Source: Raphidiopsis brookii D9 (GTDB lineage Bacteria; Cyanobacteriota; Cyanobacteriia; Cyanobacteriales; Nostocaceae). From it: a stretch of 32,000 nt of DNA. The stretch covers positions 1 through 32,000 of the forward strand of contig ACYB01000040.1 of NCBI GenBank assembly GCA_000175855.1. Reading direction: 5' to 3'. Made by a program: the position numbers and the translations under genes. Under the pieces are notes generated by a model. That model saw only the letters and a list, made by a program, of their open reading frames with translations. It searched no databases and was not told where the DNA came from. Below are positions 8,923 through 29,887 of the stretch, one piece after another; the stretch's first letter is position 1; every line of letters starts with the position of its first letter.

Positions 8923-8992
8923 ACACTAATTTCAGATGAGTTGAATGTTAATCAATTAGAATTTAGAAGTGACAACACTTAGGAATGACAGG

Positions 8993-12301: not shown

Positions 12302-12344
12302 AAAACATGTATCCTTGAAATAATTGACGCAAATCTGACGTAAA

Positions 12345-13262
12345 TCAAACACCCACAGGTACACGCTTATTATAATAAATAGAGGCATCCCCTTTCACGG
12401 CTTGACTTTTTTGACCATTAACACTAACGGGTACATCACCTACAATAGTAACTCTCTGAACCCGACGAGGCTGATTACCATAATCTGCTATGGCATAGTG
12501 TTGGGTAGCGCGATTATCCCAAAATGCCACATCACCCACTTTCCAACGCCAACGGACTGTATTTTCTGGGCGCGTTACATAGGACTGCAACAATTGAATA
12601 ATATGATCTGACTCCGTTGTAGATAGTCCCCTAATCTGTCTGACGAAACCACCGATAAATAATCCTTTTTCCCCAGACTCAGGATGAACACGTACTACTG
12701 GATGTAAAGTTTCATACACAGTTGAGGTAAAAACTTCTCGATAAGCCTTGAGATCCTCGGAAAGATTGACTGCAGCTTCGGCATAGTCATAGGCATTGCT
12801 GTGAACTGCCCATAGCTCATCAGCAAGTTGACGCAGGTGTTCTGGTAAGTCGCGATATGCTGTTACGGAATTGCCCCAAATAGTATCACCACCATAAGCC
12901 GGAATTTCTAAGGCCCGCAAAATAGAACCCAGAGGAGGACGGTCCACAAATGTGACATCAGTATGCCAATTGTTTGCACGAGCAGCTGTTTTCCCATAGT
13001 CCAAATCTAATATTTCTGGGTGACCTGTTAAAGATGGAACTGTAGGATGAGCTGTTGTAATTTCTCCAAATCGACGGGCAAAATCGATTTGATTCTCAGC
13101 ACTAAGATGTTGATTACGGAAAAAGATTACTTTATATTCAACAAGGGCACGACGAATTTCACTAATAATTGCATCACTGAGATTTTCTTGCAAATCAATT
13201 TCTAAGATCTTGGCACCGATACGTCCAGCAATTGGCTTAATCTTTAAGTATTGATAAGTCAT
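12345..13262 (-). CDS. tauD: TauD/TfdA-family Fe(II)/2-oxoglutarate dioxygenase (taurine/alkyl-sulfonate or sulfate-ester dioxygenase)
   Basis: 305 aa. Facial-triad region NNWHTDVTFVDRPPLGSILRALEIPAYGGDTIW, distal WAVHS, and FWDNRATQHYA. Substrate cannot be assigned from sequence. Confidence 0.9.
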   Translation of the reverse strand: MTYQYLKIKPIAGRIGAKILEIDLQENLSDAIISEIRRALVEYKVIFFRNQHLSAENQIDFARRFGEITTAHPTVPSLTGHPEILDLDYGKTAARANNWHTDVTFVDRPPLGSILRALEIPAYGGDTIWGNSVTAYRDLPEHLRQLADELWAVHSNAYDYAEAAVNLSEDLKAYREVFTSTVYETLHPVVRVHPESGEKGLFIGGFVRQIRGLSTTESDHIIQLLQSYVTRPENTVRWRWKVGDVAFWDNRATQHYAIADYGNQPRRVQRVTIVGDVPVSVNGQKSQAVKGDASIYYNKRVPVGV

Positions 13263-13335
13263 TTTCAGCTCCTAAATACTATCCGTTATAAAAGACTTAC
13301 CCAAACTTACCCAGCACTAGACCTAATTATACAAA

Positions 13336-13364
13336 ATAACTGGAACTAAGGGGTAGTTGGTGAT
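13336..13364. repeat. Copy 1 of a 29-nt direct repeat with AACTA-N5-TAGTT palindromic core; candidate operator
   Basis: ataactggaactaaggggtagttggtgat. It is 27/29 identical to 13523-13551, and both mismatches lie in the 5-nt spacer of the palindrome. Confidence 0.45.
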
Positions 13365-13522
13365 CTATTTCTGCTTTGTCTTAACTACAAAATATTTAAA
13401 CACTAAATGCCTATCGATATTTAGCAGTATTAATGTATATTCCCAGGAAATTATTCAAAAAACAAGTATCTATCAATACATTTTTTGATTCAATACATTT
13501 CTTTATTTATTGAAAATGATTC

Positions 13523-13551
13523 ATAACTGGAACTAAGCGATAGTTGGTGAT
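13523..13551. repeat. Copy 2 of the 29-nt direct repeat; candidate operator
   Basis: ataactggaactaagcgatagttggtgat, starting 187 nt downstream of copy 1, in the tauD/porin divergent intergenic region. Confidence 0.45.
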
Positions 13552-13898
13552 TTTTGCCCTACCAGTAAAAATACAAAAATGTATTCCCTAATACTTGACT
13601 TTTATATTTTTTATGCAGTAGTATCAGGGGCGTGATTTAAATACGGTTACTCTATCGAGTTTTAGTAGATAACTAAAACCAATGGGTGTAACCATTTTGT
13701 TTGAGCAATCATGTTATCGCGTCTGACTAAGGCGTGCAAGTCTACTGAGGGATAACCGCTCGCTCCCGTTGAAGTAGAAAGTAAAGTCTAGTTTCGTCTA
13801 GGTTTTATGTAGCAGAATGTGTAGAACTTTTCCATTTCAAAGTTTTTACGCTTTTTTGAACAAAAAATGTGTTCTTTTGTATATGTGTGGTGAGAGGA

Positions 13899-15575
13899 AT
13901 GAAAAAACCCGCTGAAAATTTATTAATTGTTTTGCCCATATCCCTAGGATTATTAGCCATAACCAGTGGACCTAAGACTATTGCCAGTGAATCAAGAAAA
14001 GAAAATGAGCAGATAAATCAGCAACTAGATGTTTTATACACACAGAATCAAGATAGCGGGTCCCAAACTACATCAGTTTCGCAGTTTTCAGATGTACAGC
14101 CAACAGATTGGGCATTTCAAGCATTACAGTCCTTAATTGAGCGATACAACTGTATTAGTGGTTATCCAGACAGTACATTTCGTGGTGGACGCACGTTGAA
14201 CCGCTATGAATTTGCCGCCAGTCTGAGTGCCTGTTTAGAAAGAGTTAATGAAATAATTAGTTCTGCAACATCAGATTTAGTGCCTAGATCTGATTTAGAC
14301 AAAATTGATCAACTAACTGGTGAGTTTAAGAATGAACTTAGTCAATTTAGGGGAAGACTAGATAAGTTAGAAAGAAGACTAGATAAAGTGGAAGCCAATC
14401 AGTTTTCCACAACAACAAAATTACAGGGTGCAGTCCAGTTTGTACTGGGAGGAGTTTTAAGAGGGAATAACGTTATAACTAAACAACCTGCCCCCCGTAA
14501 TATCACATTTCAAGAGCAAGCTCGTTTAATACTAAACAGTAGTTTCACGGGTAAGGATCAGCTGCGGTTAACCCTTGTGGGTGGCAATATTGAGTCATTA
14601 GGAAATGCCAGTGGAGCTGGTGTTTTTGGAACATTCGATGGAAGAACAGCAGACAATCGTAGCCCTGCTTTTGCAGCTAATCAGATTGTCCTAGCTGGTG
14701 TTCGTTATCGTTTCCCCATCGGGAAAAACACACAATTCAATATTTTTGCTCAGTCTGATGGAGCGAACGAAATTGGTTTAAGTGGTCCGACCAATCCATT
14801 TGAAGGGTCTGCTTCCAATGGAATATCAAGATTTTCTCGACGCAACATGGTTTATAACTATGGGGATACAGGCCCGGGAATTGCTATTCTTCACAATTTA
14901 AGTGACCAATGGCAATTAGGTTTATCATACACAGCTCCCAATGGTGACAATCCCGCAGTTAATAATGGACTGTTTGCTGGTAGATATGTAGCTTTTGGAC
15001 AAATAACATATTTTAGTCCTAAGAAAAATTTCCGTTTTGGTCTAAGCTATGCCAACACTTACAGTCCAGCAGGTACCATTGGTCAGGGTGGAACCAACTT
15101 TGGACCTGCTGCAGGTAGTAATTTGGCTAACAGTATTATTCCCACAGAAAAAGGTGGTGCAGGAACACTTGGTAATCTATATGGTGTTGGTGCATTGTAT
15201 AGGATTAATCCTAGATTGACCTTTAATGTTTTTGGGGGCTACTCGGCACATCGATACCTAAGAAATGGTGACGGTGAAGTCTGGAACTGGGGTGCAGGGT
15301 TAACATTCCCTGACTTAGGTAAAAAGGGTAGTCTAGGTGCTATTTTTGCTGGTATGGCACCGAAATTGACTGGTTTAAGTTCCAATATTGATTTGGGAGC
15401 AGGTAAAGGTAAAACTGATAAAGATACCTCCTTACATATTGAAGGATGGTACCAATATAAGCTGACTGATAATATTCAAATTACACCTGGATTTATTTGG
15501 ATAACAGCACCGAATTCAAATAGTACTAATCCCGCCAGTTTGGTTGGTTGGCTACGTACAACTTTTACCTTCTAG
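13899..15575 (+). CDS. Outer-membrane porin, SLH domain + coiled coil + OprB-family beta-barrel
   Basis: The track ORF starts at GTG 13869; ATG 13899 (MKKPAENLLIVLPISLGLLAI) is preceded by GAGAGGA. SLH block FSDVQPTDWAFQALQSLIERYNCISGYPDSTFRGGRTLNRYEFAASL, coiled-coil RGRLDKLERRLDKVEANQFSTTTKL, a Gly/Asn/Tyr-rich barrel, and a C-terminal ...TTFTF. Confidence 0.85.
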   Translation: MKKPAENLLIVLPISLGLLAITSGPKTIASESRKENEQINQQLDVLYTQNQDSGSQTTSVSQFSDVQPTDWAFQALQSLIERYNCISGYPDSTFRGGRTLNRYEFAASLSACLERVNEIISSATSDLVPRSDLDKIDQLTGEFKNELSQFRGRLDKLERRLDKVEANQFSTTTKLQGAVQFVLGGVLRGNNVITKQPAPRNITFQEQARLILNSSFTGKDQLRLTLVGGNIESLGNASGAGVFGTFDGRTADNRSPAFAANQIVLAGVRYRFPIGKNTQFNIFAQSDGANEIGLSGPTNPFEGSASNGISRFSRRNMVYNYGDTGPGIAILHNLSDQWQLGLSYTAPNGDNPAVNNGLFAGRYVAFGQITYFSPKKNFRFGLSYANTYSPAGTIGQGGTNFGPAAGSNLANSIIPTEKGGAGTLGNLYGVGALYRINPRLTFNVFGGYSAHRYLRNGDGEVWNWGAGLTFPDLGKKGSLGAIFAGMAPKLTGLSSNIDLGAGKGKTDKDTSLHIEGWYQYKLTDNIQITPGFIWITAPNSNSTNPASLVGWLRTTFTF

Positions 15576-15635
15576 GCCATTTCTTCAGGGGGTTGGGTAA
15601 AAGTATAATTTATTGCAATAAGCTGTAATCTTTTC

Positions 15636-15664
15636 GATGCGTTAGGTGATAGCCGTAACGCATC
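15636..15664 (+). other. 9-bp stem-loop downstream of the porin gene (possible non-canonical terminator or RNA processing site)
   Basis: gatgcgtta / taacgcatc pair perfectly around an 11-nt loop. It is followed by ctaccccccc, so there is no U-tract. Confidence 0.3.
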
Positions 15665-15769
15665 CTACCCCCCCATACATTACTTAATAGTAAATTGCTA
15701 AACTGGCTAATTTTTAAGTCTTTTTGAACTGCAGTCTACTGTAACAGTTAATTAATTATCCGTAAAACC

Positions 15770-16813
15770 ATGAAAATACCATTTCTTTCCCAACGTCGTG
15801 CGGCCTTAAAACGCATTCTTCAATACTCAGTTCTAGGATTATTTAGCTTGTCTTTCCCCTTATTAAGTATTAGTTTGCAGCCAACTCAAGCACAACAAAA
15901 ATCCGGTTTTAGTTCTAAGGAGATTAACTTGGCATATCAAACATCAGGAGACATTGTTAAGGTGAAAAAGGTTGTTGAACCGAGATTTCAAGCTCTAGGT
16001 GTAAAGGTAAATTGGATTGGTCCATTTCCAGCAGGTCCCCAATTGATAGAAGCCATGAATGCAGGCAAAGTGGATATTGGTACTGTAGGAGAAACACCAC
16101 CAATTTTTTCTCAAGCTGCTGGAATCACGGAAGTGATTTATATTGCTGGCAGAGTGCCTAGTAGAGGATTAGGGCAAGGTGTTATTGTGAGGGCTAATTC
16201 TCCTATTAAAAAATTAGCTGATATTAAAGGTAAGAGGGTTGCTTTTCAAAGAGGATCTAATGCCCACTACTTATTAGCCAAAGCCCTAAAAGAAGTAGGA
16301 CTAAAAATCAGTGATGTCACAGTAGTTGGGTTAACACCATCGGAAGCTCGTGATGCTTTTGTACAGGATAAGGTAGAGGTTTGGGTAGGTGGTGACCCCT
16401 TTTTAGCACTCGTGGAAAAAACCATTCCCGTTCGTAATCTCAGAAATGCAGCAAGAATTAATACTCTAGGTGGTTTTTATTTAGGTAGACGGGAGTTTAT
16501 CAACAAAAACCCCCAATTGGTACGTATATTTCTAGAAGAGGCGGATAAGATTGGGGAGTGGGCAGAGAATAATCCCAAGGAAGTGGCTAAGGCGTTTGCA
16601 CCTGAATTAAAAATAGATGAGTCAGTTTTAGAAACCGTGGCACGGAGACGTACATATAGACTCAGAAAGCTGACACCAGCAATTATTGCCGAACAACAGC
16701 AGGTTGCTGATTTCTATTTCGAAGAAAAAATCATCCCGCGTAAAATTAACGTCAAAGATACAACTCTTCCTTCTGAATTATCTAGGGTAATCACACCTGA
16801 CCGTTTGAAGTGA
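15770..16813 (+). CDS. ssuA: Aliphatic sulfonate-type ABC transporter substrate-binding protein (SsuA family), paralog 2
   Basis: 347 aa with a signal peptide (SQRRAALKRIL...SISLQPTQAQ). FPAGPQLIEAMNAGKVDIGTVGETPPIFSQAAG and QQQVADFYFEEKIIPRKINV parallel paralog 1. Confidence 0.85.
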   Translation: MKIPFLSQRRAALKRILQYSVLGLFSLSFPLLSISLQPTQAQQKSGFSSKEINLAYQTSGDIVKVKKVVEPRFQALGVKVNWIGPFPAGPQLIEAMNAGKVDIGTVGETPPIFSQAAGITEVIYIAGRVPSRGLGQGVIVRANSPIKKLADIKGKRVAFQRGSNAHYLLAKALKEVGLKISDVTVVGLTPSEARDAFVQDKVEVWVGGDPFLALVEKTIPVRNLRNAARINTLGGFYLGRREFINKNPQLVRIFLEEADKIGEWAENNPKEVAKAFAPELKIDESVLETVARRRTYRLRKLTPAIIAEQQQVADFYFEEKIIPRKINVKDTTLPSELSRVITPDRLK

Positions 16814-16904
16814 TTTGTAGGTAGTATATTAACCTCAATTTGGGTTAAGCGCTTAGATACATTCCGTTAAAAGCCATTTACATTTATTCAATAGTGAGTT
16901 TTTT

Positions 16905-18713
16905 ATGCAACAAGGTCATAATTCCGATGCAGAAGATTCTTCCCCACATCATGAGAATAACAAGAAGGGGAAACGCCTTAATTCTAACCTGGGTATAAAT
17001 AGACGTTCATTTATTGGTCGTGGCGGTCTTGCCGGAGGCTTTCTCATCGGTATAACAGGTGCATCCTTGATTGAGAACGGCAAAACAAGTGTTGTTCAAG
17101 CTCAGAACACGGCAATTAAGGGTAAATACCCCAAGTTATTAGAGAAAACCTACAATATACGTGTATCAGCAGCGAAAGCAAATCGAGAAACTCCTGTTCC
17201 CCCCCAACCAACAAATGGTGATGAGGATCTCTATCCTAACAAAATAGGTTCTGATTCAAGAGGTTTGCCCCATAATAATTTGGGTGAAGTCGACCTCAAG
17301 GCTTATGAAACCTTAACCAAAGCGATAAGAACTCATAATCATGATGATTTTGAAAATGTTATTTTGGGTGGTACAAGGAAATTGGTTAATGCTCAGGCTC
17401 CTCTAGCTGTCAGTTTAGAAGGGACTAGCCCGTTACAAGTATCAGTTCCACCACCACCTAACTTAACAAGTCCAGAAAGAGCTCATGAAGCAATTGAGCT
17501 TTATTGGCAAGCTTTACTACGAGATATCCCTTTCCACAAACTGCAAAATAACACTGATGATCCTCTGGTTTTAGCTGCGGTTGAGGAACTAAATCAACTC
17601 TCTAATTTTAAAGGTCCCAAGGAAAATGGACGTGTGACCCCCCAAAGTCTATTTCGTGGTAGTGTTACCTATGTTGACAAAAATGATCGGTCTGGAAAGA
17701 CTTCAAAACACGTTACCCCACCGGGAGTACTTATTGGACCTCATATCTCCCAATTTGCACTGCTAAATATACCTTGGGGAGTCCAATATGTTCCACCTGT
17801 AATTCGCACCACTGTGTCGGGCAATGACTTTCTGACTGATTATGAGGAATGGTTAAATGTACAGAATGGTGGTACCCCAAAACAGTCCACTTTTGATCCG
17901 ATCCGCCGTTACATTTCTACTATTCGTGACCTGTCAGAGTTTTCCCATACCCCCGGCGCTTCATTTTATGGTGCCTCTTTAATTCTTGCTACCACCAGAA
18001 ATGCTAAAGATCCCCTGAGTGGAGGGATTGGTGCACCCTTTAATCCGGGCAATCCATTCGTCAAATCAAAAACTCAACAGGGTGGTAATGGTTCTTTTGC
18101 TGTTGGACACCTACAAGCTTTATTAAGCTTGAGTACATCCCGTGCCATCAGGGTAGCATATTGGCAAAAATATTATGTACACCGCATACTGCGTCCTGAA
18201 GCATATAGTGGGTTAGTCCACCACAATATTCTCAATAGAACTCAATATCCAGTTCATAGAGCTATCTTGAATTCTAAAGCTCTGGCTAGGAGTTTTAGCA
18301 AGTTTGGTTCTTATTTGTTACCCCATGGATATCCTGAAGGATCACCTATTCATTCATCTTATGTTGGTGGTGCAGCTGCGATCGCAGGTGCAAATGTCAC
18401 CATTCTCAAGGCATATTTTGATGAGAATTTTGTCATTCCCAATCCCGTAATTCCCGATCCAAATGACCCAACTAAAGTTATTCCCTATAACGGAGATCCC
18501 TTAACCATAGGTGGTGAGTTGAATAAGCTAGCTACAAATTATGCTCTCGGTCGCGGACATGGTGGTATTCACTGGCGTACGGACGGTTCTGCTGGACTGG
18601 CTTTAGGAGAAGAAGTTGCTATTGCCATTCTTAAGGATGAGTCCTTGGGTTACAATGAGAAGTTTGCGGGCTTTACCTTCACCAAATTTGATGGCACTAA
18701 GGTTACGGTTTAA
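16905..18713 (+). CDS. Tat-exported vanadium-haloperoxidase/PAP2-superfamily-like protein
   Basis: 602 aa. Tat motif NRRSFIGRGGLAG. PAP2/VHPO motif 1 WQKYYVHRILRPE (K-x7-RP) and motif 3 GRGHGGIHWRTD (R-x5-H-x3-D). Motif 2 reads HSSYVGGAAA where HPSYPSGHA is expected. Confidence 0.7.
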   Translation: MQQGHNSDAEDSSPHHENNKKGKRLNSNLGINRRSFIGRGGLAGGFLIGITGASLIENGKTSVVQAQNTAIKGKYPKLLEKTYNIRVSAAKANRETPVPPQPTNGDEDLYPNKIGSDSRGLPHNNLGEVDLKAYETLTKAIRTHNHDDFENVILGGTRKLVNAQAPLAVSLEGTSPLQVSVPPPPNLTSPERAHEAIELYWQALLRDIPFHKLQNNTDDPLVLAAVEELNQLSNFKGPKENGRVTPQSLFRGSVTYVDKNDRSGKTSKHVTPPGVLIGPHISQFALLNIPWGVQYVPPVIRTTVSGNDFLTDYEEWLNVQNGGTPKQSTFDPIRRYISTIRDLSEFSHTPGASFYGASLILATTRNAKDPLSGGIGAPFNPGNPFVKSKTQQGGNGSFAVGHLQALLSLSTSRAIRVAYWQKYYVHRILRPEAYSGLVHHNILNRTQYPVHRAILNSKALARSFSKFGSYLLPHGYPEGSPIHSSYVGGAAAIAGANVTILKAYFDENFVIPNPVIPDPNDPTKVIPYNGDPLTIGGELNKLATNYALGRGHGGIHWRTDGSAGLALGEEVAIAILKDESLGYNEKFAGFTFTKFDGTKVTV

Positions 18714-18806
18714 TAGTTGACTTCAAATTCAACTTGATCAATTAGGAATATGGGGAATATACTTTTCTCATATTCCGGCAATTTAATAAACCATAGTAAA
18801 CATATA

Positions 18807-19634
18807 ATGAATATGACTAGTGCTAATCAATTACTAAATCATCGGTATGGGAATGGCAATTTTAATTCGGATGTACCTTGGAATGATACTTTGGAGACCT
18901 TGCTATCCCATCGGTCAATTCGTGGGTATCTAGGAAATAGTTTGCCCTCGGGCACCTTAGAAATTTTAATTGCTGCAGCTCAATCAGCATCCACATCCTC
19001 TAATCTCCAAACCTGGAGCGTTATAGCAGTGGAAAATACGGACCGTAAACAACAATTGTCCCAACTGGCTAATAATCAACCCCACATTCGTCAGTGTCCT
19101 TTATTTCTAGTCTGGTTAGCGGATTTAGCTAGACTAGCACATATCGCTGAAGAGCGGGGACTACCCCATGAAGGATTGGACTATCTGGAAATGTTCCTTA
19201 TGGCTGCTCTGGATACCGCCTTGGCAGCACAAAATGCTGTTGTAGCAGCAGAATCCTTAGGATTAGGAACCGTTTACATTGGTGCATTAAGAAATAACCC
19301 TCTGGAAGTGGCACGTTTACTCAATTTGCCTTCCCATGTTGTGGCTGTATTTGGTTTGTGTGTTGGCTATGCTGATCCAGTTATAAATGTGGATATAAAA
19401 CCTCGTTTGCCTCAATCTGTGGTCTTACACAGAGAAAACTATCAACTACAAACCCAAAATGAAGGAATTGCTCGGTATAATCAAGTGATGGAAGAATTTT
19501 ATAGTTCACAAAATATGAATGTTCCGGGTGATTGGTCAGAACATTCTAGCAAAAGAGTTGCCAATGCCAATTCTTTAACCGGTAGACAAAACCTACGGGA
19601 AATTCTCACAAAACTTGGATTTCAACTGCGCTGA
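18807..19634 (+). CDS. NfsA/Frp-family NADPH-dependent flavin oxidoreductase (nitroreductase fold)
   Basis: Start placed at ATG 18807 (MNMTSANQ...); the track ORF starts at 18750. It aligns by eye along its length with E. coli NfsA: LLSHRSIRGY, AAQSASTSSNLQ, AAQNAVVAAESLGLGTVYIGALRNN, LFGLCVGY..D.KPRLP. Confidence 0.85.
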   Translation: MNMTSANQLLNHRYGNGNFNSDVPWNDTLETLLSHRSIRGYLGNSLPSGTLEILIAAAQSASTSSNLQTWSVIAVENTDRKQQLSQLANNQPHIRQCPLFLVWLADLARLAHIAEERGLPHEGLDYLEMFLMAALDTALAAQNAVVAAESLGLGTVYIGALRNNPLEVARLLNLPSHVVAVFGLCVGYADPVINVDIKPRLPQSVVLHRENYQLQTQNEGIARYNQVMEEFYSSQNMNVPGDWSEHSSKRVANANSLTGRQNLREILTKLGFQLR

Positions 19635-19665
19635 GAATGGTGACCCAATCCTCAACCATTTTTTC
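19634..19665 (+). terminator. Putative intrinsic terminator in the 29-nt convergent gap
   Basis: agaatggt (19634-19641) pairs with accatttt (19655-19662): 8 bp including one G-U, with a 13-nt loop. It runs into a T7 tract at 19659-19665. Confidence 0.4.
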
Positions 19666-20617: not shown

Positions 20618-20678
20618 GACAAATTATTCCTAAATACTTGATAGTTAACAAAGTCTTAATGAGCCATATTTTAGTATC

Positions 20679-20999
20679 TTAATTTATTATTAGATACGTA
20701 GAGTCCTGGTTAGAAGTGTTCCTCTGCAACTCTGTCCAACCAATATTTTTTCTGTAACTGCCTAAAAGTGCTGCTTCTTCCAGAAATTTTTCATCTATTT
20801 GTGCCAAAGGATCCACCTCTGGTGCAACGTATAGTGCATCTACTGGACAGTATAACTCACACATGAAACAAGTTTGACAGTCATTTTGTCTAGCTATTAT
20901 TGGAGGTCCATTTACTACTTTATCAAACACATTGGTTGGACAAACTTTGACACAAATATTACATTTAATACACCTGGATTCACTGACTAGTTCAATCAT
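20679..20999 (-). CDS. 2x[4Fe-4S] dicluster ferredoxin
   Basis: 106 aa, with CIKCNICVKVCP and CQTCFMCELYCP. Confidence 0.8.
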   Translation of the reverse strand: MIELVSESRCIKCNICVKVCPTNVFDKVVNGPPIIARQNDCQTCFMCELYCPVDALYVAPEVDPLAQIDEKFLEEAALLGSYRKNIGWTELQRNTSNQDSTYLIIN

Positions 21000-21108
21000 G
21001 ATTTGTTAGTAGGTTTTGACAATAGATAGGATCATTAGTAGAATCATTATTTGAGGTGGAGCAGAAATAACTCCACCAGAAGCTTGCTTATACTGAATTC
21101 AAACCATA

Positions 21109-22743
21109 TTAGAGAGAAGTCTTATCCAGATGTGTCCTCATGGGTATGGTTATGCTTTTGACCCAAACTTGGTCCAAACCTCCACTAATTAAGTGGTGTT
21201 GTTGAGCTGCATCAAGTTCTGGATAGTCCTGGCGTCTGTGCATCCCACGGGTTTCTCTTCTTTCTAAAGCACTACTATACATCCATCTGGCAGTGGCCAC
21301 CATAGCCGCAGCTTCCCTTGTTCGTAGAAGATTATTGTTACTTGCTACTTCACCTTGACGAATTGCCTTCCATAGAGAATCTAATTTCCCCAGTGATGTG
21401 GTCAATCCCTCTTCATTACGGAAATAGTTGCGATTATATGGAAAGACCTCTGCTTGAGTAGCTTTGACAATTTCTTCACTTTCAACCTGATTGCTACTAC
21501 CGGATGTTAATCCGGCCCCCTCTAAAAATTCCACATATCTCTCGTTGGCTGCTATGCCCATATCCTGAGAGTATTTTGCAGCAAATTTCCCCGCCCAGTA
21601 TCCCGAAGACAATGCCCAGGCAGCATTATGACTACCACCACCAGTAAAACCACCACAAATTAATTCTCTTGTTGCAGCATCCCCAGCTGCATACAGTCCA
21701 GGGACAGAGGTAGCACAGGTGTAGTCTGTAATTCTAATGCCACCCGTTCCCCTTACGGTACCTTCCAAACGCAAAGTAACAGGAAACCTTTGGGTAAACG
21801 GATCAATTCCTAGGCGATCAAAAGGTAGAAAGAAGTTTGGTTGAGATAATCGCATTGTTGACCGCATTTGTTCTGAGGCCTTATCAATAATCGCATAAAC
21901 CGGTTGAGTTAATAGGGTTTGAGCAATGACAGAACGACCTTTCTGAGATCCAGCACCAGGTATGAGCGTGCCATCTTCGTAAGTAAAACTGGCCCAGTTA
22001 TAGAATAGAGTTTTGGTGACTGAAGAAAACGCGGGAGCAATGGCGTAGGCGTTGGAAAATTCCATCCCCGACATTTCCGCTCCCATCTCCGCTGCCATTA
22101 AGTATCCATCCCCAGTTAACACATTACAACCCAGAGCTTTACTTAAAAATGCACAACCACCCGTAGCAATTACTACTGCATGCGATCGCACAATCCAATT
22201 CTCTCCAGTTTGACGATTAATTCCCCTGGAACCAGCTACTGCGCCCTCTTTATCTACCAACAATTGCAAAGCAGGACTATGGTCTAAAATTTTCACTCCT
22301 GCTTGTTTAACTTTTTTTCTCATGAGACGCATATACTCAGGTCCTTGAAGACTGCGTCTGTAGGATTTACCTTCCTCATCTGTGGGAAAAGGATAGCCCC
22401 AATCAGCTAATTGGTTAACGTTTGTATAGGTCTGATCTAACACACGCTCCATCCAATCTCTTAAGGACAAAAATCCCCCCAGAGATTCTCTAGAAGCCAT
22501 TGCTGCTTCTCTGCTTTCAGGTTCCGGTGGCACATACCACACACCGTTACCAGCCGCTGCTGCACAACCACTAGTACCACAATAGCCTTTATCTACTAAC
22601 ACTACTTTAGCTCCGGCATTAGCAGCGCTCCATGCTGCCCAAGCGCCAGCTGGTCCACCACCAATTACTAATACATCAGCTACTAAAGTTTCGTGACTGT
22701 TCTTCTTGGAGGAAACCGAAAAAGAAAACTTTTCCTGAGTCAT
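21109..22743 (-). CDS. FAD-dependent oxidoreductase, fumarate reductase/succinate dehydrogenase flavoprotein superfamily
   Basis: 544 aa. DVLVIGGGPAGAWAAWSAANAGAKVVLVDKG, PGLYAAGDAA, and C-terminal ERRETRGMHRRQDYPELD. Confidence 0.8.
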   Translation of the reverse strand: MTQEKFSFSVSSKKNSHETLVADVLVIGGGPAGAWAAWSAANAGAKVVLVDKGYCGTSGCAAAAGNGVWYVPPEPESREAAMASRESLGGFLSLRDWMERVLDQTYTNVNQLADWGYPFPTDEEGKSYRRSLQGPEYMRLMRKKVKQAGVKILDHSPALQLLVDKEGAVAGSRGINRQTGENWIVRSHAVVIATGGCAFLSKALGCNVLTGDGYLMAAEMGAEMSGMEFSNAYAIAPAFSSVTKTLFYNWASFTYEDGTLIPGAGSQKGRSVIAQTLLTQPVYAIIDKASEQMRSTMRLSQPNFFLPFDRLGIDPFTQRFPVTLRLEGTVRGTGGIRITDYTCATSVPGLYAAGDAATRELICGGFTGGGSHNAAWALSSGYWAGKFAAKYSQDMGIAANERYVEFLEGAGLTSGSSNQVESEEIVKATQAEVFPYNRNYFRNEEGLTTSLGKLDSLWKAIRQGEVASNNNLLRTREAAAMVATARWMYSSALERRETRGMHRRQDYPELDAAQQHHLISGGLDQVWVKSITIPMRTHLDKTSL

Positions 22744-22821
22744 GATTATTGTCTCCCAAATTGTAGTATGAACTGCGATAAAAATGTAGTAAAAACTATC
22801 AGCAAAAAACTTTGATCCTAA

Positions 22822-23865
22822 TTACGGTGCTGGATTAGGATAACGAGTATTAACAGCATCTATTTCTTGGAAAATCTCTGGTTCTAAGACTATATTCACA
22901 CTATCTATATCTTCTTGCAGTTGAGCCAAGGTCGTAGCCCCAATAATTGTGCTTTTTACAAACCAACGACTTCTCACAAAGGCAATAGATAATTGAGCAG
23001 GTTTGAGATTATATTTTTTCGCAATCTCGATATAGGAAATTACAGCTTCTTTCACATTGGGTTTCAAATAACGCTGCCCAAAACCCGGAAACAAGGATAT
23101 ACGAGTGTTTTTTACCTCTTCATTCTCTATGTATTTACCAGTTAAAAACCAAAATGCTAGGGGACTGTAAGCGAGCAGTCCCACATCAGTATGGCGAGCA
23201 ACTTCTGCTAAACCTGAATCAAAACTGCGATTAAGCAAATTGTAAGCATTTTGAATCGAAACAACTTTCGGAAGTTTCAATTCCTTAGCAATACGGACAA
23301 ACTCAGTTACCCCCCATGGGGTTTCATTACTTAAACCAAGATAACGAATCTTACCTGCGTCAATTAGCTTGGCAAAAGCAGTTAACTGCTCACTAATTGG
23401 CACGCTATCCCTTTCCAAATCGGGATTATATACTGTTTGTCCAAAGGTTGGAACATAACGTTCCGGCCAATGAATTTGATACAAATCTATATAGTCAGTT
23501 TGTAATCTTTTTAAACTTTCCTCAACTGCTTGTTGAATATTTTGCTGATCAACCTTATTATTTCCCCCTCGTAACCAGGTAAACGGACGACCAGGTCCGG
23601 CAATCTTTGTTGCTATTATCAGCTTATCTCTTTGCTGATTCTTTAGCCACTCACCAATATAGACTTCTGTTTTTCCCTGGGTTTCACCACGAGGGGGCAC
23701 TGGATACATTTCCGCAGTGTCTATAAAATTTATCCCCTTGTCAACAGCATAATCAAGTTGTTCATATGCTTCCGACCCGGTATTTTGATGACCATAGGTC
23801 ATGGTCCCTAGACAAATATCAGAAACGTAAAGATTACTTTCCCCAAGTTGATTGTATTTGACCAT
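22822..23865 (-). CDS. tas: NADP(H)-dependent aldo-keto reductase, Tas-like
   Basis: 347 aa. LGTMTYG..N...A..QLDYAVDKGINFIDTAEMYPVPPRGETQGKTE closely follows E. coli Tas as I remember it. Also DLYQIHWP and LGLSNETPWG. Confidence 0.85.
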   Translation of the reverse strand: MVKYNQLGESNLYVSDICLGTMTYGHQNTGSEAYEQLDYAVDKGINFIDTAEMYPVPPRGETQGKTEVYIGEWLKNQQRDKLIIATKIAGPGRPFTWLRGGNNKVDQQNIQQAVEESLKRLQTDYIDLYQIHWPERYVPTFGQTVYNPDLERDSVPISEQLTAFAKLIDAGKIRYLGLSNETPWGVTEFVRIAKELKLPKVVSIQNAYNLLNRSFDSGLAEVARHTDVGLLAYSPLAFWFLTGKYIENEEVKNTRISLFPGFGQRYLKPNVKEAVISYIEIAKKYNLKPAQLSIAFVRSRWFVKSTIIGATTLAQLQEDIDSVNIVLEPEIFQEIDAVNTRYPNPAP

Positions 23866-23969
23866 GTTACTAAATTATCCTCGTTACAAGAAAATAACTA
23901 AATTATCTGCAAATTCCACAAGCAGCTTTAAAATGCTTTTGTAGTTCATAACAAAAATCTAATAAACGA

Positions 23970-25190
23970 CTAATAAATAGCTGCCAAAACCCTATCCACT
24001 CCAGCGCGCAACGCTGTAGCAGCACCAGAACTCATATCTCGTGGCGCGCAAATACGATTTCTCAAATATGCTAGTGTAATGGCCCCTACAGCTGCAAAAT
24101 TTGGATCCACACCTTCTTTTCCACCCGCATTACCACCCAATAAAAGTTTGTTATCACCATTAACTAAATAATCTGCTAACAATCTCAGATAATATTCCAC
24201 GGACTCTCGAATACTGACAACATCACCCAAAAGCTCTAATCCAGAGTTCTTAACTATGTCTTTAATGGCAGCATCACGATTATTAGCCAGTCTTTCACTA
24301 GCTTCTGCTCTGTATTCTAGAAGCTCACTTTCTGCTAAATTCAAGGGTAAGGGACTACCAATAGGTTTTAACCCAAATCTCCGTCTTAAAAGCAAATTGT
24401 TAGTGATGGGATCGGACTTCACCCTGCTAAATGCGGGACGCTCTTTAAAAGCTGCAAACCAGGTATTAATTCTAGGGAAACGGGGATTTCCTAAAAGGGC
24501 ATAATCCCGATATACAGGCAAATTTGCTGCTAGTCTATCCAAATGGGGAATATACATGATATCAACCAAGCTAAAGGTTGACAAAAAATAAGGCCCCGGA
24601 TATTGACCTAAATCTTCCTCAAATTCATCTAATTTACTTTCCAATTCTAGTTCTAACTTTGCTAACTCATTTTTATCCTCCGGAGGTTGTCGCAGCAGCT
24701 TGTAGGCAACAGTTTGCAATTCATTGGTTTCTGCTTTTTCGACCCATTGTCTGGCTACTTGATTTTCCTGTGGATCCTCAGGAAGCAAAGTCTCATCAAA
24801 ATGCTCTTCTATAGCTAGAAGAATATCCTTGGATTCATAAACTAGTCTCCCCTCTATTTTGGCAGCAGGAACAAGAGTTGTGGGTACTAAATCTGTATAC
24901 CATTTCGGCTTATTAGTTAAATCAATAAACTCTGTGCTGAATGGTATCTGCTTTTCTTCCAAAGCTAACCAAACTCGCTCACAAAATGGACACCAAGAAT
25001 TACTGTCACGGTAAAGTAGAATCGGAGGTTGACCATCTGGTGGTAGTTTATTCCAACCAGCAGGAATGGGTGCACTTGAGGGATTCTGTCCCCATCTTTT
25101 TATTCGACGAGCAGAAGTGTACTTCTGCGCAGTTTCTAGCAGTTCCTCCCAATCGGGTATTGTAGAACTGGGTATTGTAACAGGGGACAT
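23970..25190 (-). CDS. Cys-type glutathione S-transferase-like protein (CPFC active site) with long C-terminal extension
   Basis: 406 aa. Thioredoxin-fold N-domain ILLYRDSNSWCPFCERVWLALEEKQIPF...PAAKIEGRLVYESKDIL, then a GST C-domain-like helix region, then ~150 further residues with no motif I recognise. Confidence 0.65.
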   Translation of the reverse strand: MSPVTIPSSTIPDWEELLETAQKYTSARRIKRWGQNPSSAPIPAGWNKLPPDGQPPILLYRDSNSWCPFCERVWLALEEKQIPFSTEFIDLTNKPKWYTDLVPTTLVPAAKIEGRLVYESKDILLAIEEHFDETLLPEDPQENQVARQWVEKAETNELQTVAYKLLRQPPEDKNELAKLELELESKLDEFEEDLGQYPGPYFLSTFSLVDIMYIPHLDRLAANLPVYRDYALLGNPRFPRINTWFAAFKERPAFSRVKSDPITNNLLLRRRFGLKPIGSPLPLNLAESELLEYRAEASERLANNRDAAIKDIVKNSGLELLGDVVSIRESVEYYLRLLADYLVNGDNKLLLGGNAGGKEGVDPNFAAVGAITLAYLRNRICAPRDMSSGAATALRAGVDRVLAAIY

Positions 25191-25304
25191 TTTTACCTCG
25201 CTTTTTCCGCAATTCCAGAAAATACAAATGGTTTGGATTATTAATCCCCGGTCAAAAATCCCTGGTTTTTAACCTGGGGAAGCTAAAATATTCGACCGTA
25301 TATT

Positions 25305-25340
25305 AAAAGTACTGTGAATTTATCGGATAACAGTACTTTT
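25305..25340. promoter_or_regulatory. Perfect 10-bp inverted repeat (aaaagtactg N16 cagtactttt) in the GST/GST divergent region
   Basis: Arms at 25305-25314 and 25331-25340. A related half-site, gataaacagtactt, occurs at 25662-25675, ~50 nt before the 25727 start. Confidence 0.3.
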
Positions 25341-25726
25341 CAAGATGAGGTAACCATACTACAGAAGTTTGGGATAAATCAAGTATTGGATATTACAAAA
25401 TTCCCATAACCTGATTTTTTTTGCAAGTAGCTTTGATAGAAACACTCTTTTGAGATTTGTTATAGCTTCTTAGCTATTAATTACATCCCATGTGGGTAAA
25501 TGGCGATCGCTTGATTATTCTTGATTATTTAGGTTCCTAAGAGGAAAAAACAGACCTTACCATGATTTGGGACCTACAAAGATAAAAAATCAATGTTGAC
25601 AAAAATACTTGCTTTTTTGCCTGGACTATGAAACAATCATCTAATATACGGTAAACCGACAGATAAACAGTACTTATTGATTACCAGGTAACGAAGTTTC
25701 AATCGCAAGAGTAAGGAAATAATTTG

Positions 25727-26398
25727 ATGACCAACCTAAAACTATATTTTGCCAAGGGATCCACCTTTTCTCAAAGGACCCGCGTTGTGTTACTGGAAAA
25801 AGGGGTTGAATTTACACCTATTGAAATTGATCTACAAAATAAACCGGAAATATTCACCCAAACTTCTGCATACGGCAAGGTTCCCGCTATTAAGCATGGA
25901 GACTTAGCAATATACGAATCAGCAATTATCAATGAGTATCTAGAAGAAGTATTCCCTCAGCCAGCCCTATTACCCAAAGATCCAGGAGCAAAAGCATGGG
26001 CCAGAATTTGGATTGATTACGCTAATACGCGGCTAGTTCCAGCCTTTAATAAGTTACTGCGTGGTAAAAATAATGAGGAACAAGAGCAAGGGCGTAGAGA
26101 ATTTTCAGAATCCTTACTGTATATTGAGAACAAAGGACTGGGACAAGTCTCCGGCAATGGACCCTACTGGCTAGGGGAAAATCTGAGTTTAGTGGATATT
26201 AGTTTCTATCCTTGGTTTGAAAGATTACCGGTTTTAGATAAATTCCGTAATTTTTCCCTTCCGGAAGAAACTCCCCGATTACAGGAGTGGTGGCAGAACT
26301 TGCGTCGTCGAGAATCAATTCAAAGTGTGGCTAATCCCACGGAATTTTATATAGATAGGTTTACTAGGCTGTTCGGATTAACAGGTCTATCAAAATGA
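25727..26398 (+). CDS. Glutathione S-transferase family protein (omega/lambda-like fold with Ser in the active-site position)
   Basis: The track ORF starts at TTG 25724; ATG is at 25727. [48 protein letters not shown], and C-domain [15 protein letters not shown]. Confidence 0.8.
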
Positions 26399-26407
26399 AG
26401 AACTTGT

Positions 26408-27433
26408 ATGGCGCAATTTACCGACAATTTACTGCTCACACATGGAATTAGGCCGATAGTCACATTGACTATCTGGTTACTATGGTCACTGAGTAGTTGG
26501 CTATGGATAGATTTACCAGCTTTGGCAGTAAATAATCCTTGTCCGCAGGGCATGATACTAATTCCCGGAGGTACCTTGAAAATGGGGACAGACAATTCTG
26601 TTTTTGCAGAAGAGAGACCCTCTAAGAATGTGACAGTTGATTCCTTTTGTATGGATAAATACGAAGTAACAAATGCTGAATTTGCTAAATTTGTTACAGC
26701 TACCGGGTATATAACAGTTGCAGAATTACCCCTGTCCAAGGAACAATTTCCCGATCTAACTGAGCAACAAAGATCACCGGGATCTCTAGTGTTTAAAATG
26801 CCAAGACAGGGTGAAATTCCCTTTTTGAGTTGGTGGCATTGGCTTCCTGGGGCTAACTGGCAGCATCCCCTGGGCAATAAAAGCGAAATATTAGATAACT
26901 ATCCTGTTGTCCACATAGCATATCAAGATGCCCTGGTTTTTGCTGATTGGTTGGGCAAGTCCTTGCCAACGGAAGCTCAGTGGGAATACGCTGCACGGGG
27001 TGGTTTAGAGGATGCAACTTATACCTGGGGTAATAAATATTCAGAAATAAAAGCTAACACTTGGCAGGGGACATTTCCGTTTCTGAACACTAAAGTTGAT
27101 GGTTATGTAGGTCTGGCTCCAGTGGGTTCTTTCCCGGCTAACGGTTACGGATTGTATGATATGGCGGGTAATGTTTGGGAGTGGACTGTCGACTGGTTTA
27201 CTGTAGAAGATAAACACTCTGTTAATCAAGTCTCAGAACATGAAATCTCAAAAACAAGAAAAAGTTTTGATCCAAACAAACCTGGAGAAACTTTACTACA
27301 TGTTATCAAAGGTGGCTCTTACCTATGTGCGCCCAATTACTGTAGTCGTTACCGTCCAGCTGCGCGGGAATCTCAAGCACCAGATACAGGGACGAATCAC
27401 ATTGGGCTTCGCCTGGTAAAAAATTTGTATTAG
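26408..27433 (+). CDS. Formylglycine-generating enzyme (SUMF1/FGE-sulfatase domain) with N-terminal signal/anchor
   Basis: 341 aa, starting 9 nt after the GST stop. MILIPGGTLKMG, VTNAEFAKFV, PVVHIAYQDALVFADWLGKSLPTEAQWEYAARGG, NGYGLYDMAGNVWEWT, and GGSYLCAPNYCSRYRPAAR. Hydrophobic N-terminus IVTLTIWLLWSLSSWLWIDLPALA. Confidence 0.9.
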   Translation: MAQFTDNLLLTHGIRPIVTLTIWLLWSLSSWLWIDLPALAVNNPCPQGMILIPGGTLKMGTDNSVFAEERPSKNVTVDSFCMDKYEVTNAEFAKFVTATGYITVAELPLSKEQFPDLTEQQRSPGSLVFKMPRQGEIPFLSWWHWLPGANWQHPLGNKSEILDNYPVVHIAYQDALVFADWLGKSLPTEAQWEYAARGGLEDATYTWGNKYSEIKANTWQGTFPFLNTKVDGYVGLAPVGSFPANGYGLYDMAGNVWEWTVDWFTVEDKHSVNQVSEHEISKTRKSFDPNKPGETLLHVIKGGSYLCAPNYCSRYRPAARESQAPDTGTNHIGLRLVKNLY

Positions 27434-27544
27434 TTCCCGAAATTGCCTATGGGAATTTTTGCCTCATTTTTCATACACGAGTTTATATACAATTTCATAG
27501 ATAAGTTCATACACAAATTCAAAGCTTTATAATTAGGCAAGTCT

Positions 27545-29887
27545 ATGCTGTATACAATATTGCATAAAGTTTCACGATTACTCTTTTCGTTATTTTTTGT
27601 GTCATGGCTAGCTGTAACTAGTCCTGCTCTTGCGAGTACACCCAGTGTTCTACCAATTGAGCCACCCTCTTTTGAAGGTAAAATTGGTTTATCTTACAAA
27701 GATTCTAAACCAGACTTTCCTAAGCAAATTAGGGCTCCAGAAAAAGCTCCTAATGTATTACTAGTTCTGTTAGATGATGTAGGTTTTGGACAAGCCAGTA
27801 CCTTTGGTGGACCAATAGAAACTCCCAACTTGACTCGTTTAGCACAACAGGGACTGCAATACAACCACTTTCACACCACTGCTCTTTGCTCACCTACAAG
27901 AGCTGCTTTACTCACTGGAAGGAATCATCATGCTGTTGGGACAGGGGTAGTGTCCGAATTGGCTACGGGTTATCCTGGCTACACGACCATTTTACCTAAA
28001 AGTGCTGCCACCGTAGCCGAAATTCTGCGCCAGAATGGTTATAATACAGCAGCCTTCGGTAAGTGGCACAATACACCAGATTACGAAACCAGTGCTGCTG
28101 GACCTTTTGACCGTTGGCCAACAGGATTAGGATTTGAATACTTTTACGGCTTTTTAGGCGGCGATACTAACCAATGGAGTCCTGCTTTAGTAGAAAATAC
28201 CCAGCGAATTACACCACTTAGTAATCAATCTAACTATCATTTGACTCCGGATTTAGTTGACCATGCCATTAGCTGGATTCGTACTCAAAACTCCATAGGA
28301 CCAAATAAGCCCTTTTTTGCATATCTAGCCACTGGAGCCACCCATGCACCTCACCATGCGCCCCAGAATTGGATTGAAAAATATCGAAGCAAATTTGATC
28401 AAGGTTGGGATAAATTACGTCAAGAAACCTTTGCCCGTCAGCAACAACTGGGTGTAATTCCCCGGGATGCCCAACTTACTCCTCGTCCGAAGGAACTACC
28501 CGCCTGGGATTCCCTCACCCTAGAGGAGCAAAAAATCTATAGCCGGGAAATGGAAGTATTCGCCGGCTTTTTGTCTCACACAGATTATGAAGTGGGAAGA
28601 TTAATTAATGCCATTGATCAATTAGGAGAATTAGCTAATACATTAATTATTTATATTGTAGGTGATAACGGGGCTAGTGCTGAAGGTGGTCTAACTGGTA
28701 GTGTTAATGAATTGAAGGTATTCAATGGAATAAAGGAAACAAAAGAACAAATTTTAGAATCCTTAAATGATTTAGGCGGTCCTCAGACCTTTAATCATTA
28801 TCATGCAGCCTGGGCATGGGCCGGAAGTACCCCCTTTCAATGGACAAAGCAAATAGCATCTCACTTTGGTGGTACCCGCAATCCCTTGATAATTACTTGG
28901 GGTGAAAAAATTAAACAGCCAGGACTGCGCAGTCAATTCCACCATGTAATTGATATTACGCCTACTATTCTGGAAGCAGCGGGAATTACTTTACCCAGTA
29001 AGGTTAATGGTGTAAAACAACAAAAGATTGATGGCACGAGTTTGGTCTATACATTTAAGGATTCCCAAGTAGCTTCCCAACGGCAAACTCAGTATTTTGA
29101 AATATTTGGCAATCGAGCTATTTATGACCATGGTTGGATAGCAGCTGCTCGTCATCCCCGATTACCTTGGCAAGGTACAATTAAAGCTGATTTTGATCAA
29201 GATCAATGGGAACTATATAACATCGAAAAAGATTTTAGTGAAGCTAATAACCTAGCAGATACAAATCCCCAGAAGCTCCAAGAACTACAAAAATTATTCC
29301 TATCGGAAGCCAAGAAAAATAATGTTTTACCCCTAGATGATCGAATTTCTGAAAGGTTTGGCGTTCAAAATCGTCCCTCCCTAGCTGCAGGGCGTGCAAG
29401 ATTCACCTATTATAGTGATGTTAGCATTCCCGAAGGTAGTGCGCCTAACATTAAAAATCGGTCATTCAGTATTATTGCTGAAATAGACACGTCAGAAAAC
29501 GGTGCATCAGGCGTTCTATTGTCACAAGGTGGAAGATTTGCCGGTTGGGGGTTGATTGTGGATGATAGTAAACCAGCGTACGTATATAACTTGGCTAATA
29601 CGGAGCGATACATTATCCAATCTCCCGAAAAATTACCAGTGGGTAAATCCACTGTCCAATTTGAGTTTGATTATGACGGTGGTATAGGTGCTGGAGGGAC
29701 TGGGAAATTATTTGTCAACAATCAACAGGTAGCAGTAGGTCGAATAGCAAAAACCATACCCTATCGTATTGCTCTGGATGAAACTTTCGATGTTGGTCGA
29801 GATACAGGAACACCAATTATTGATAGCTATCAAGTTCCCTTTGCATTTACAGGTAACCTGAAAAAAATTACCTTGGATTTACGTTAA
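27545..29887 (+). CDS. Cys-type arylsulfatase (type I sulfatase, large 780-aa form) with Sec signal peptide
   Basis: Signal LLFSLFFVSWLAVTSPALAS. NVLLVLLDDVGFG, FGly motif ALCSPTRAALLTGRNHH, GKWHN, and VGDNGAS. Confidence 0.95.
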   Translation: MLYTILHKVSRLLFSLFFVSWLAVTSPALASTPSVLPIEPPSFEGKIGLSYKDSKPDFPKQIRAPEKAPNVLLVLLDDVGFGQASTFGGPIETPNLTRLAQQGLQYNHFHTTALCSPTRAALLTGRNHHAVGTGVVSELATGYPGYTTILPKSAATVAEILRQNGYNTAAFGKWHNTPDYETSAAGPFDRWPTGLGFEYFYGFLGGDTNQWSPALVENTQRITPLSNQSNYHLTPDLVDHAISWIRTQNSIGPNKPFFAYLATGATHAPHHAPQNWIEKYRSKFDQGWDKLRQETFARQQQLGVIPRDAQLTPRPKELPAWDSLTLEEQKIYSREMEVFAGFLSHTDYEVGRLINAIDQLGELANTLIIYIVGDNGASAEGGLTGSVNELKVFNGIKETKEQILESLNDLGGPQTFNHYHAAWAWAGSTPFQWTKQIASHFGGTRNPLIITWGEKIKQPGLRSQFHHVIDITPTILEAAGITLPSKVNGVKQQKIDGTSLVYTFKDSQVASQRQTQYFEIFGNRAIYDHGWIAAARHPRLPWQGTIKADFDQDQWELYNIEKDFSEANNLADTNPQKLQELQKLFLSEAKKNNVLPLDDRISERFGVQNRPSLAAGRARFTYYSDVSIPEGSAPNIKNRSFSIIAEIDTSENGASGVLLSQGGRFAGWGLIVDDSKPAYVYNLANTERYIIQSPEKLPVGKSTVQFEFDYDGGIGAGGTGKLFVNNQQVAVGRIAKTIPYRIALDETFDVGRDTGTPIIDSYQVPFAFTGNLKKITLDLR

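Follow-up and report, generated by a model that had tools for sequence, protein, structure and literature searches.

We analysed a stretch of 32,000 nucleotides from the cyanobacterium Raphidiopsis brookii D9 (positions 1 to 32,000 of contig ACYB01000040.1, assembly GCA_000175855.1; hereafter the window), of which positions 1989-31903 are, judging from domain and gene content, an organosulfur-acquisition island. One class of the proteins encoded there is nearly or wholly devoid of methionine (Met) and cysteine (Cys). This depletion is not due to chance, and we consider it likely that it results from sulfur sparing, i.e. from selection against Met and Cys in one class of the proteins of an island devoted to organosulfur scavenging. 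Sulfur sparing itself is already known, including for TauD and SsuA-type proteins; what is new is its extension to a clade of vanadium-haloperoxidase-like (VHPO-like) proteins, to a glutathione transferase (GST), to a sulfatase with minimal sulfur and to reductases of Nostocales, together with the loss of the catalytic histidine (His) in the VHPO-like clade.

All 27 open reading frames (ORFs) of the window with at least 100 amino acids (aa) were re-translated, and their Met (initiator excluded) and Cys residues were counted (see Table 1 for coordinates). Three proteins, as a previous sequence-only reading had claimed, contain neither residue: the 602-aa VHPO-like protein, the 305-aa TauD and the 223-aa GST. 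The 780-aa arylsulfatase has a single Met (Met336) and a single Cys (Cys115), the latter inside LCSPTRAALLTGR, which carries the CSPTR formylglycine signature. Next come the sulfonate-binding protein SsuA2 (one internal Met, no Cys), the D-2-hydroxyacid dehydrogenase (2 Met and 0 Cys, or 0.6%), the porin when read from the ATG at 13899 (2 Met and 2 Cys, 0.7%) and the aldo-keto reductase (2 Met and 1 Cys, 0.9%). The low values announced earlier for the sulfatase, the dehydrogenase, the porin and the Tas-like reductase were all recovered. The statement that both mature SsuA proteins keep one Met and no Cys holds for SsuA2 but not for SsuA1, which after its signal peptide retains the lipobox Cys87 (LITAC) in addition to Met164. 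The contrast with other proteins of the island is marked, again in agreement with the first counts: 20 Met and 9 Cys in the AprA-like flavoprotein, 15 and 6 in the 544-aa flavoprotein, 10 and 7 in the ACAD-fold protein, 5 and 4 in the formylglycine-generating enzyme (FGE), and 6 and 2 in the NfsA-like nitroreductase; the 106-aa ferredoxin has 8 Cys. More generally, in the window and in related loci, sulfur content is ordinary in membrane permeases, MFS transporters, ATP-binding cassette (ABC) ATPases, flavoproteins, ferredoxin, FGE and the flavin mononucleotide (FMN) reductase, and so it is in the adjacent non-sulfur genes of the window (GUN4, DUF499 and HEAT protein).

The flanks of related loci are full of sulfur-free proteins and are therefore unusable as a null; for that reason an unrelated Nostoc plasmid was taken as background, namely the 149 ORFs of at least 150 aa found in 250 kb of Nostoc PCC 7120 plasmid alpha. 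Their Met+Cys content has a median of 2.6% and a pooled value of 2.30% (internal Met 1.23%, Cys 1.08%). Only two of the 149 (195 and 238 aa) have no Met+Cys at all, and none of the 89 with at least 250 aa. With p = 0.0230, the binomial probability is 8e-7 for the VHPO-like protein (0 in 602 aa), 2e-6 for the sulfatase, 8e-4 for TauD and 6e-3 for the GST. Taken jointly, the eight sulfur-poor proteins (0-0.9% Met+Cys) hold 12 Met or Cys in 3479 residues (P = 1e-21). A content of 1% or less is found in 8 of 26 window ORFs; the background has 11 such ORFs among its 149 (Fisher P = 0.002). The figure of about 1e-9 first proposed for the 602-aa protein was right in placing it far from chance; it was overstated about 1000-fold, because it assumed 3.5% Met+Cys where 2.3% was measured.

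The comparison with orthologs and more distant relatives is most complete for the VHPO-like protein. Its ortholog set consists of the 120 closest clusters (at 90% identity; at least 120 exist), which are 53-97% identical to it and come from Nostocales, Pseudanabaena and Leptolyngbya, with Nostoc, Anabaena, Scytonema and Fischerella among the genera represented. Almost all of the 120 have 0-1 Met+Cys; for the 116 that are full-length the mean is 0.7, and 85% of them have one at most. An exhaustive search of 50%-identity representatives gave 3514 relatives, from which the 139 full-length ones at 35-48% identity were taken as outgroup. The outgroup has a median Met+Cys of 2.2%, typically about 8 Met plus 5 Cys, and only one member is at or below 0.5%. 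At alignment columns where 46-60% of the outgroup has Met, or 67% has Cys, the clade has Ala, Gln, Asn or Ser. A Bradyrhizobium iriomotense homolog (L080, 9941-11728; 50% identity) has the Gly-Gly-Ala active-site variant described below and a twin-arginine (Tat) signal, and yet contains 4 Met and 4 Cys. The fold therefore tolerates Met and Cys, and their removal is specific to the cyanobacterial lineage. The gene for the Bradyrhizobium homolog adjoins those for a LysR regulator and a TctC-type binding protein.

These data bear on the idea that a lack of Met and Cys comes with these folds or with export, or is simply fortuitous. Secreted repeat proteins (RTX, PEP-CTERM) can indeed be free of Met and Cys, and five of the sulfur-poor proteins are exported. 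Yet the 86 outgroup haloperoxidase homologs endowed with a Tat motif have a median of 2.1% Met+Cys, distant VHPO and TauD homologs are ordinary, and TauD, the GST, the aldo-keto reductase and the 2-hydroxyacid dehydrogenase are depleted in spite of being cytoplasmic. As chance is ruled out by the binomial and Fisher tests, we find this explanation hardly credible.

The same contrast was quantified for TauD, and for the GST on the ortholog side. Among related loci, 18 of 19 TauD orthologs have no Met and no Cys, as does a Rhizobium homolog of 55% identity, whereas TfdA, SdpA and TauD homologs at 27-35% identity contain 2.8-4.1% Met+Cys. When set against orthologs and paralogs, as the sequence-only reading had proposed, the VHPO-like clade and TauD are thus both depleted and their distant relatives ordinary; the claim that the depletion points to selection is strengthened, since it is kept in orthologs at 53-100% identity and lacking in distant family members. 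The iron ligands of TauD are visible (WHTD and QHYA, forming the His-x-Asp...His triad), and the protein scores 281 bits against the NCBIfam taurine dioxygenase model, below its cut-off of 313; by sequence it is a close relative of taurine dioxygenase and a candidate taurine/alkylsulfonate dioxygenase. A further TauD homolog (62% identity, 1 Met and 1 Cys) is encoded on Planktothrix agardhii NIES-204 plasmid1 (L089, 5950-6912), next to genes for a glycine amidinotransferase, a sulfotransferase and a carbamoyltransferase, in what resembles a biosynthetic cluster where the sulfur content of the other genes is ordinary; it looks like a sulfur-spared TauD recruited into another pathway.

For the GST, 114 of 120 ortholog clusters are without Met and Cys and display the motif (A/G)STFSQR. 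The Ser-type label given to it at the outset stands: the protein has GST_N and GST_C domains, and in the alignment with plant Tau-class GSTs (E = 1e-29) its Ser12 coincides with their catalytic Ser. Over its whole length it is 100% identical to a protein recorded for Raphidiopsis brookii D9. Its best structural relatives by sequence are the plant Tau- and Omega-class GSTs and bacterial SspA (E = 1e-29 to 1e-25), from which it differs by belonging to a cyanobacterial clade devoid of any Met or Cys; it stays below every NCBIfam equivalog cut-off (90.7 bits versus 314 for SspA). As to the sulfatase, each of the 8 orthologs contains a single Cys, which in every case lies within CSPTR; in the window the FGE gene lies directly upstream of the sulfatase gene, and the C-x-P-x-R signature is at residue 115. 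The porin lacks both residues in 4 of 10 orthologs from related loci, and for the aldo-keto reductase orthologs the median counts are 2 Met and 0 Cys.

We also examined 79 genomic loci carrying the VHPO-like gene. In 46 of them at least one organosulfur marker (SsuA, TauD, SsuD-like, FGE, sulfatase or ACAD) is found within 10 kb, and the sulfur-free GST co-occurs in 22. Of the 706 neighbouring ORFs that have at least 150 aa and no match in the window, 66 are without any Met+Cys; they belong to 29 protein clusters. The corresponding figure for the background is 2 of 149 (Fisher P = 2e-4). We take this enrichment as no more than qualitative support, because the related loci are orthologous and their counts not independent. 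The sulfur-free neighbours include an SDR, a Zn-ADH-type reductase, a second GST, an ACAD, an amidase, an alpha/beta-hydrolase, a DUF2808 protein, an arylsulfotransferase and luciferase-like monooxygenases. In three Pseudanabaena loci (L071, L074 and L078, around 11830-13290), a 475-aa amidase without Met or Cys is encoded directly downstream of the VHPO-like gene. The proposed tie of the VHPO-like protein and of the GST to sulfur genes is thereby borne out: in other cyanobacteria, too, both genes accompany organosulfur genes and further genes for sulfur-free proteins. For the GST, the tie rests on its composition, on its position beside FGE and sulfatase, and on its co-occurrence with the VHPO-like gene in those 22 loci.

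A close precedent is the TauABCD / SsuEADCB set of E. coli, which involves the same families (TauD, SsuA/TauA-type) and the same split between spared and ordinary proteins: Met/Cys counts are 0/0 for TauA, 1/0 for TauD and 3/0 for SsuA, against about 2% Met+Cys for TauB, TauC, SsuB and SsuC. The island differs by a complete eradication in three proteins. The island and related genomes also go beyond the enterobacterial set by including the VHPO-like protein, the Tau/Omega-like GST, a sulfatase whose catalytic Cys is the only one, an OprB porin, and reductases of the aldo-keto, SDR and Zn-ADH types. Such a split is what is known of proteins induced by sulfate starvation. Sulfur sparing is also established in Pseudomonas putida, whose 'low-sulfur-content proteins' (Scott et al. 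2007) are the counterpart of the E. coli set, and in Rhodococcus (both according to PMC8557817), as well as in Calothrix/Fremyella phycocyanin, yeast and E. coli (PMC4357790, which cites the analysis of Baudouin-Cornu et al. 2001). For cpc3, the phycocyanin of Calothrix PCC 7601 / Fremyella diplosiphon that is depleted in sulfur, PMC4357790 cites Mazel & Marliere 1989 and Gutu et al. 2011. The likeness to cpc3 is that of a filamentous cyanobacterium eradicating Met and Cys from proteins made when sulfate is scarce; the difference is that cpc3 is a low-sulfur paralog which takes the place of an abundant housekeeping protein, whereas here the sulfur-acquisition machinery itself is spared. No phycobiliprotein paralog was found within the window.

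A lineage living in chronically low-sulfate water might, alternatively, trim its abundant proteins in general, without any link to a starvation regulon. Such constitutive thrift would fit with the depletion being a fixed property of the sequences, and with a literature search that returned no expression data. It fits badly with a depletion that is gene-specific, clustered with organosulfur uptake genes and not shared by GUN4, DUF499, the HEAT protein or the Nostoc background, and with an E. coli pattern that is specific to genes known as sulfate-starvation induced. We therefore hold it to be unlikely.

The VHPO-like protein called for a closer look at its family and active site. Its family assignment is based on sequence matches in the PDB, because Pfam and NCBIfam gave no match even at E <= 10: phmmer aligned residues 82-601 with the vanadium bromoperoxidases of Corallina (1qhb, E = 1.5e-62) and Ascophyllum (1qi9, E = 1.5e-59). 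Alignment to VHPO motifs indicates that the Lys and Arg of the vanadate cage are retained in WQKYYVHRILRPE, and the Arg and vanadate-binding His in GRGHGGIHWRTD; the extra His typical of bromoperoxidases is also present. In the Curvularia enzyme, the vanadate site is formed by His496, Lys353, Arg360 and Arg490, and His404 is listed among the conserved active-site residues (PMC10278073). Where vanadium haloperoxidases have HPSYxSGHA, aa 483-491 of the VHPO-like protein read HSSYVGGAA, i.e. the Ser is changed to Gly and the equivalent of His404 to Ala. That His plays an acid-base role, and its mutation cripples halide oxidation; in PAP2 phosphatases the equivalent His donates a proton to the leaving group. 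Ala occupies this position in all orthologs where the motif could be located (about 113 of 120 clusters, the motif search having failed in 7), while xGH is retained by nearly all of the 139 outgroup representatives. The loss of the catalytic His is what casts doubt on a haloperoxidase role. The label given to the protein by the sequence-only reading was thus correct as to homology, which is clear with vanadium bromoperoxidases, and doubtful as to activity: the 602-aa protein is, by these alignments, a member of the VHPO superfamily in which one of the active-site features that define a canonical haloperoxidase is missing, and the clade is probably not one of canonical haloperoxidases. In public records these proteins are named 'vanadium-dependent haloperoxidase'.

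Other features set the clade apart from the homologous bromoperoxidases of Corallina officinalis (1qhb), Ascophyllum nodosum (1qi9) and Acaryochloris marina (5lpc; E = 1e-62 to 1e-49 for the three). In addition to its Ala and Gly replacements, the VHPO-like protein has no Met or Cys, possesses a Tat signal, and is found in a context of organosulfur uptake genes instead of natural-product or algal contexts. The twin-arginine motif is NRRSFIG, and every one of the 116 full-length orthologs carries a Tat motif. Cleavage likely occurs after VQA, in which case the mature protein would hold zero sulfur atoms. Our search of the literature found no earlier description of this VHPO-like clade. In a red alga deprived of sulfate, haloperoxidase-like transcripts mostly fall (PMC5402284), a result that is not informative for the VHPO-like clade.

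The properties of this active site also matter for an explanation in terms of oxidation resistance, according to which Met and Cys were removed because the proteins work beside strong oxidants, hypohalous acid or peroxide on the one hand, the ferryl chemistry of TauD on the other. The 602-aa protein is homologous to enzymes making hypobromous acid, a peroxiredoxin gene adjoins that of TauD, and sulfur starvation in Pseudomonas is tied to antioxidant responses (PMC12581299). But the canonical vanadium haloperoxidases, which do make hypohalous acid, are ordinary (median 2.2%, n = 139, with Met and Cys in the 1qhb and 1qi9 alignments), TauD-family oxygenases of the same chemistry carry 2.8-4.1% Met+Cys, and the VHPO-like clade is without the catalytic His required for efficient halide oxidation. 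Moreover, the depletion extends to the GST, which is cytoplasmic, to the binding proteins, to the porin and to the sulfatase, a hydrolase. A protective role against oxidants is, in our opinion, quite improbable.

What the VHPO-like protein does instead can be approached through its neighbours. Its gene belongs to a string which reads, in order, porin, SsuA, haloperoxidase-like protein and NfsA-like FMN reductase, so that it stands between SsuA2 and the reductase and downstream of the porin. This gene order would place the protein in the periplasmic part of the organosulfur uptake route. In about 20 Nostoc loci (e.g. L050:11909-12952), the gene directly downstream encodes a conserved protein of 347 aa that has a membrane anchor at its N-terminus and two motifs, CxxCH (invariant) and RMPPP (conserved); it has no match in Pfam or the PDB, and is probably a monoheme c-type cytochrome partner. 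The presence of such a membrane-anchored CxxCH neighbour hints at redox rather than hydrolytic chemistry for the VHPO-like protein. An MFS_3 transporter gene is found upstream in 18 loci. We tentatively suggest, while regarding it as somewhat doubtful, that the clade could be a periplasmic organosulfur-scavenging enzyme which reuses the vanadate/oxyanion pocket without the acid-base His. Substrates would arrive via the OprB porin, predicted to be co-transcribed, and products would be passed to SsuA; a possible reaction would be the oxidation of reduced organosulfur to an importable sulfonate or to sulfate. That the protein might convert organosulfur compounds into forms imported by SsuABC is equally speculative, a guess from gene content that we would not put at even odds.

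Returning to sulfur sparing, its targets would be soluble, periplasmic and outer-membrane proteins: the binding proteins, the porin, the sulfatase, TauD, the VHPO-like protein, the GST and the small reductases. They would be needed exactly when the sulfur of the cell is nearly gone, so that each sulfur atom saved would cheapen the response. The three sulfur-free proteins would require no more than the initiator Met, which in the exported ones would sit in the cleaved signal peptide. Proteins left unspared would be those whose chemistry or location demands Met or Cys, such as the Fe-S proteins and flavoproteins, FGE, the permeases and the ABC ATPases. From the sequences we infer that the island proteins are induced and highly abundant under sulfur limitation. 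Several points weigh against sulfur sparing so understood. The literature search yielded no transcript or protein data for these cyanobacterial genes under sulfur limitation; the nitroreductase, the FGE and the flavoproteins of the island, presumably expressed in a similar way, are not spared; the background was a plasmid of another Nostocales strain and not this genome; the neighbourhood enrichment has the limit given above; and no common regulatory motif was found in the upstream regions of the sulfur-free genes.

The search for shared regulation nevertheless brought out some elements. The spacer between the divergent genes of the 406-aa and 223-aa GSTs contains a AGTACTGT-N14-ACAGTACT inverted repeat (25308-25337) and a third ACAGTACT (25667-25674); as a common regulatory site this palindrome was dropped, since it is missing upstream of the orthologous GSTs. 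K-mer enrichment upstream of the sulfur-free genes recovered mostly the conserved leaders of the VHPO-like orthologs. In many Nostoc loci a GTTAC-N11-GTAAC element containing ACTGGAA lies about 160 nt upstream of the VHPO-like gene; it was not retained as a common motif because it is not shared across gene families. Finally, a 29-nt direct repeat, ATAACTGGAACTAAG(G/C)G(G/A)TAGTTGGTGAT, occurs at 13336-13364 and again, 187 nt further on, at 13523-13551; both copies lie in the spacer that separates TauD from the porin-SsuA-VHPO-like string. None is expected by chance, and no further copies exist elsewhere in the window. Rfam searches were empty for the window at the gathering threshold, and for the TauD-porin spacer at E <= 1.

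The window has a G+C content of about 40% and bears cyanobacterial markers, namely a GUN4 protein, the SLH-OprB porin and HEAT repeats of the PBS-lyase type. Besides the string already described, the island comprises a second SsuA-family binding protein, ABC permease and ATPase genes, an SfnB-like ACAD-fold protein, TauD with its peroxiredoxin neighbour, the FGE and arylsulfatase pair, an aldo-keto reductase, two GSTs, two SdhA/AprA-like flavoproteins and a ferredoxin.

Table 1. Main protein-coding features of the window, with the evidence for their assignment or their place in the comparison.
Feature	Coordinates	Strand	Evidence or remark
SsuA1, SsuA-family lipoprotein	1989..3212	+	TIGR01728, 243.8 bits
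AprA/SdhA-like flavoprotein, 580 aa	3224..4966	+	Contrast protein, sulfur-rich
TauD-family Fe(II)/2-oxoglutarate dioxygenase, 305 aa	12345..13262	-	PF02668, E = 8e-67
SLH-OprB porin, 558 aa from ATG at 13899	13899..15575	+	First gene of the porin-SsuA-VHPO-like-nitroreductase string
SsuA2, SsuA-family sulfonate-binding protein, 347 aa	15770..16813	+	TIGR01728, 199.6 bits (cut-off 163.5)
VHPO-like protein, 602 aa, predicted Tat-exported	16905..18713	+	phmmer versus PDB
NfsA-like nitroreductase / FMN reductase, 294 aa	18750..19634	+	Contrast protein, same gene string as VHPO-like
D-2-hydroxyacid dehydrogenase, 317 aa	19664..20617	-	
2x[4Fe-4S] ferredoxin (106 aa) and 544-aa FAD protein	20679..22743	-	Contrast proteins, not spared
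Aldo-keto reductase (Tas-like), 347 aa	22822..23865	-	
Ser-type (Tau/Omega-like) GST, 223 aa	25727..26398	+	Pfam GST_N and GST_C
FGE, 341 aa	26408..27433	+	Pfam FGE-sulfatase, E = 1.6e-75; converts the sulfatase Cys
Secreted formylglycine-type arylsulfatase, 780 aa	27545..29887	+	PF00884, E = 3e-66

Two other regions of the minus strand deserve mention. At 6245-9817 lies a module coding for an ABC permease, a beta-carbonic-anhydrase-like protein, an NrtA/CmpA-like (NMT1_2) binding protein with a Tat-like signal and an ABC ATPase, followed by an ACAD-fold protein and an SCO4226-like protein; judging from its gene content, the module could have a role in the use of cyanate, thiocyanate or carbonyl sulfide. 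At 23970-25190 is the gene for the 406-aa GST, which has a CPFC motif and whose aa 330-404 weakly match the phycoerythrin alpha subunit (NF058506, E = 3.8e-5).

To conclude, the evidence for selection is strengthened by ortholog clades that are nearly or wholly without Met and Cys where distant relatives have about 2%. Composition would assign the VHPO-like protein and the Ser-type GST to the sulfur-starvation response, and more broadly would offer a route, based on sequence only, to place genes of unknown function in that response in bloom-forming and symbiotic Nostocales. Hundreds of entries named 'vanadium-dependent haloperoxidase' that lack the catalytic His are possibly misannotated and probably have another function. 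If, moreover, the VHPO-like clade does act in organosulfur scavenging as tentatively suggested above, zero Met+Cys would be a predictor of the cyanobacterial sulfur-starvation regulon, and the 29 further protein clusters flagged in the neighbourhoods of the VHPO-like gene would be candidates for it.

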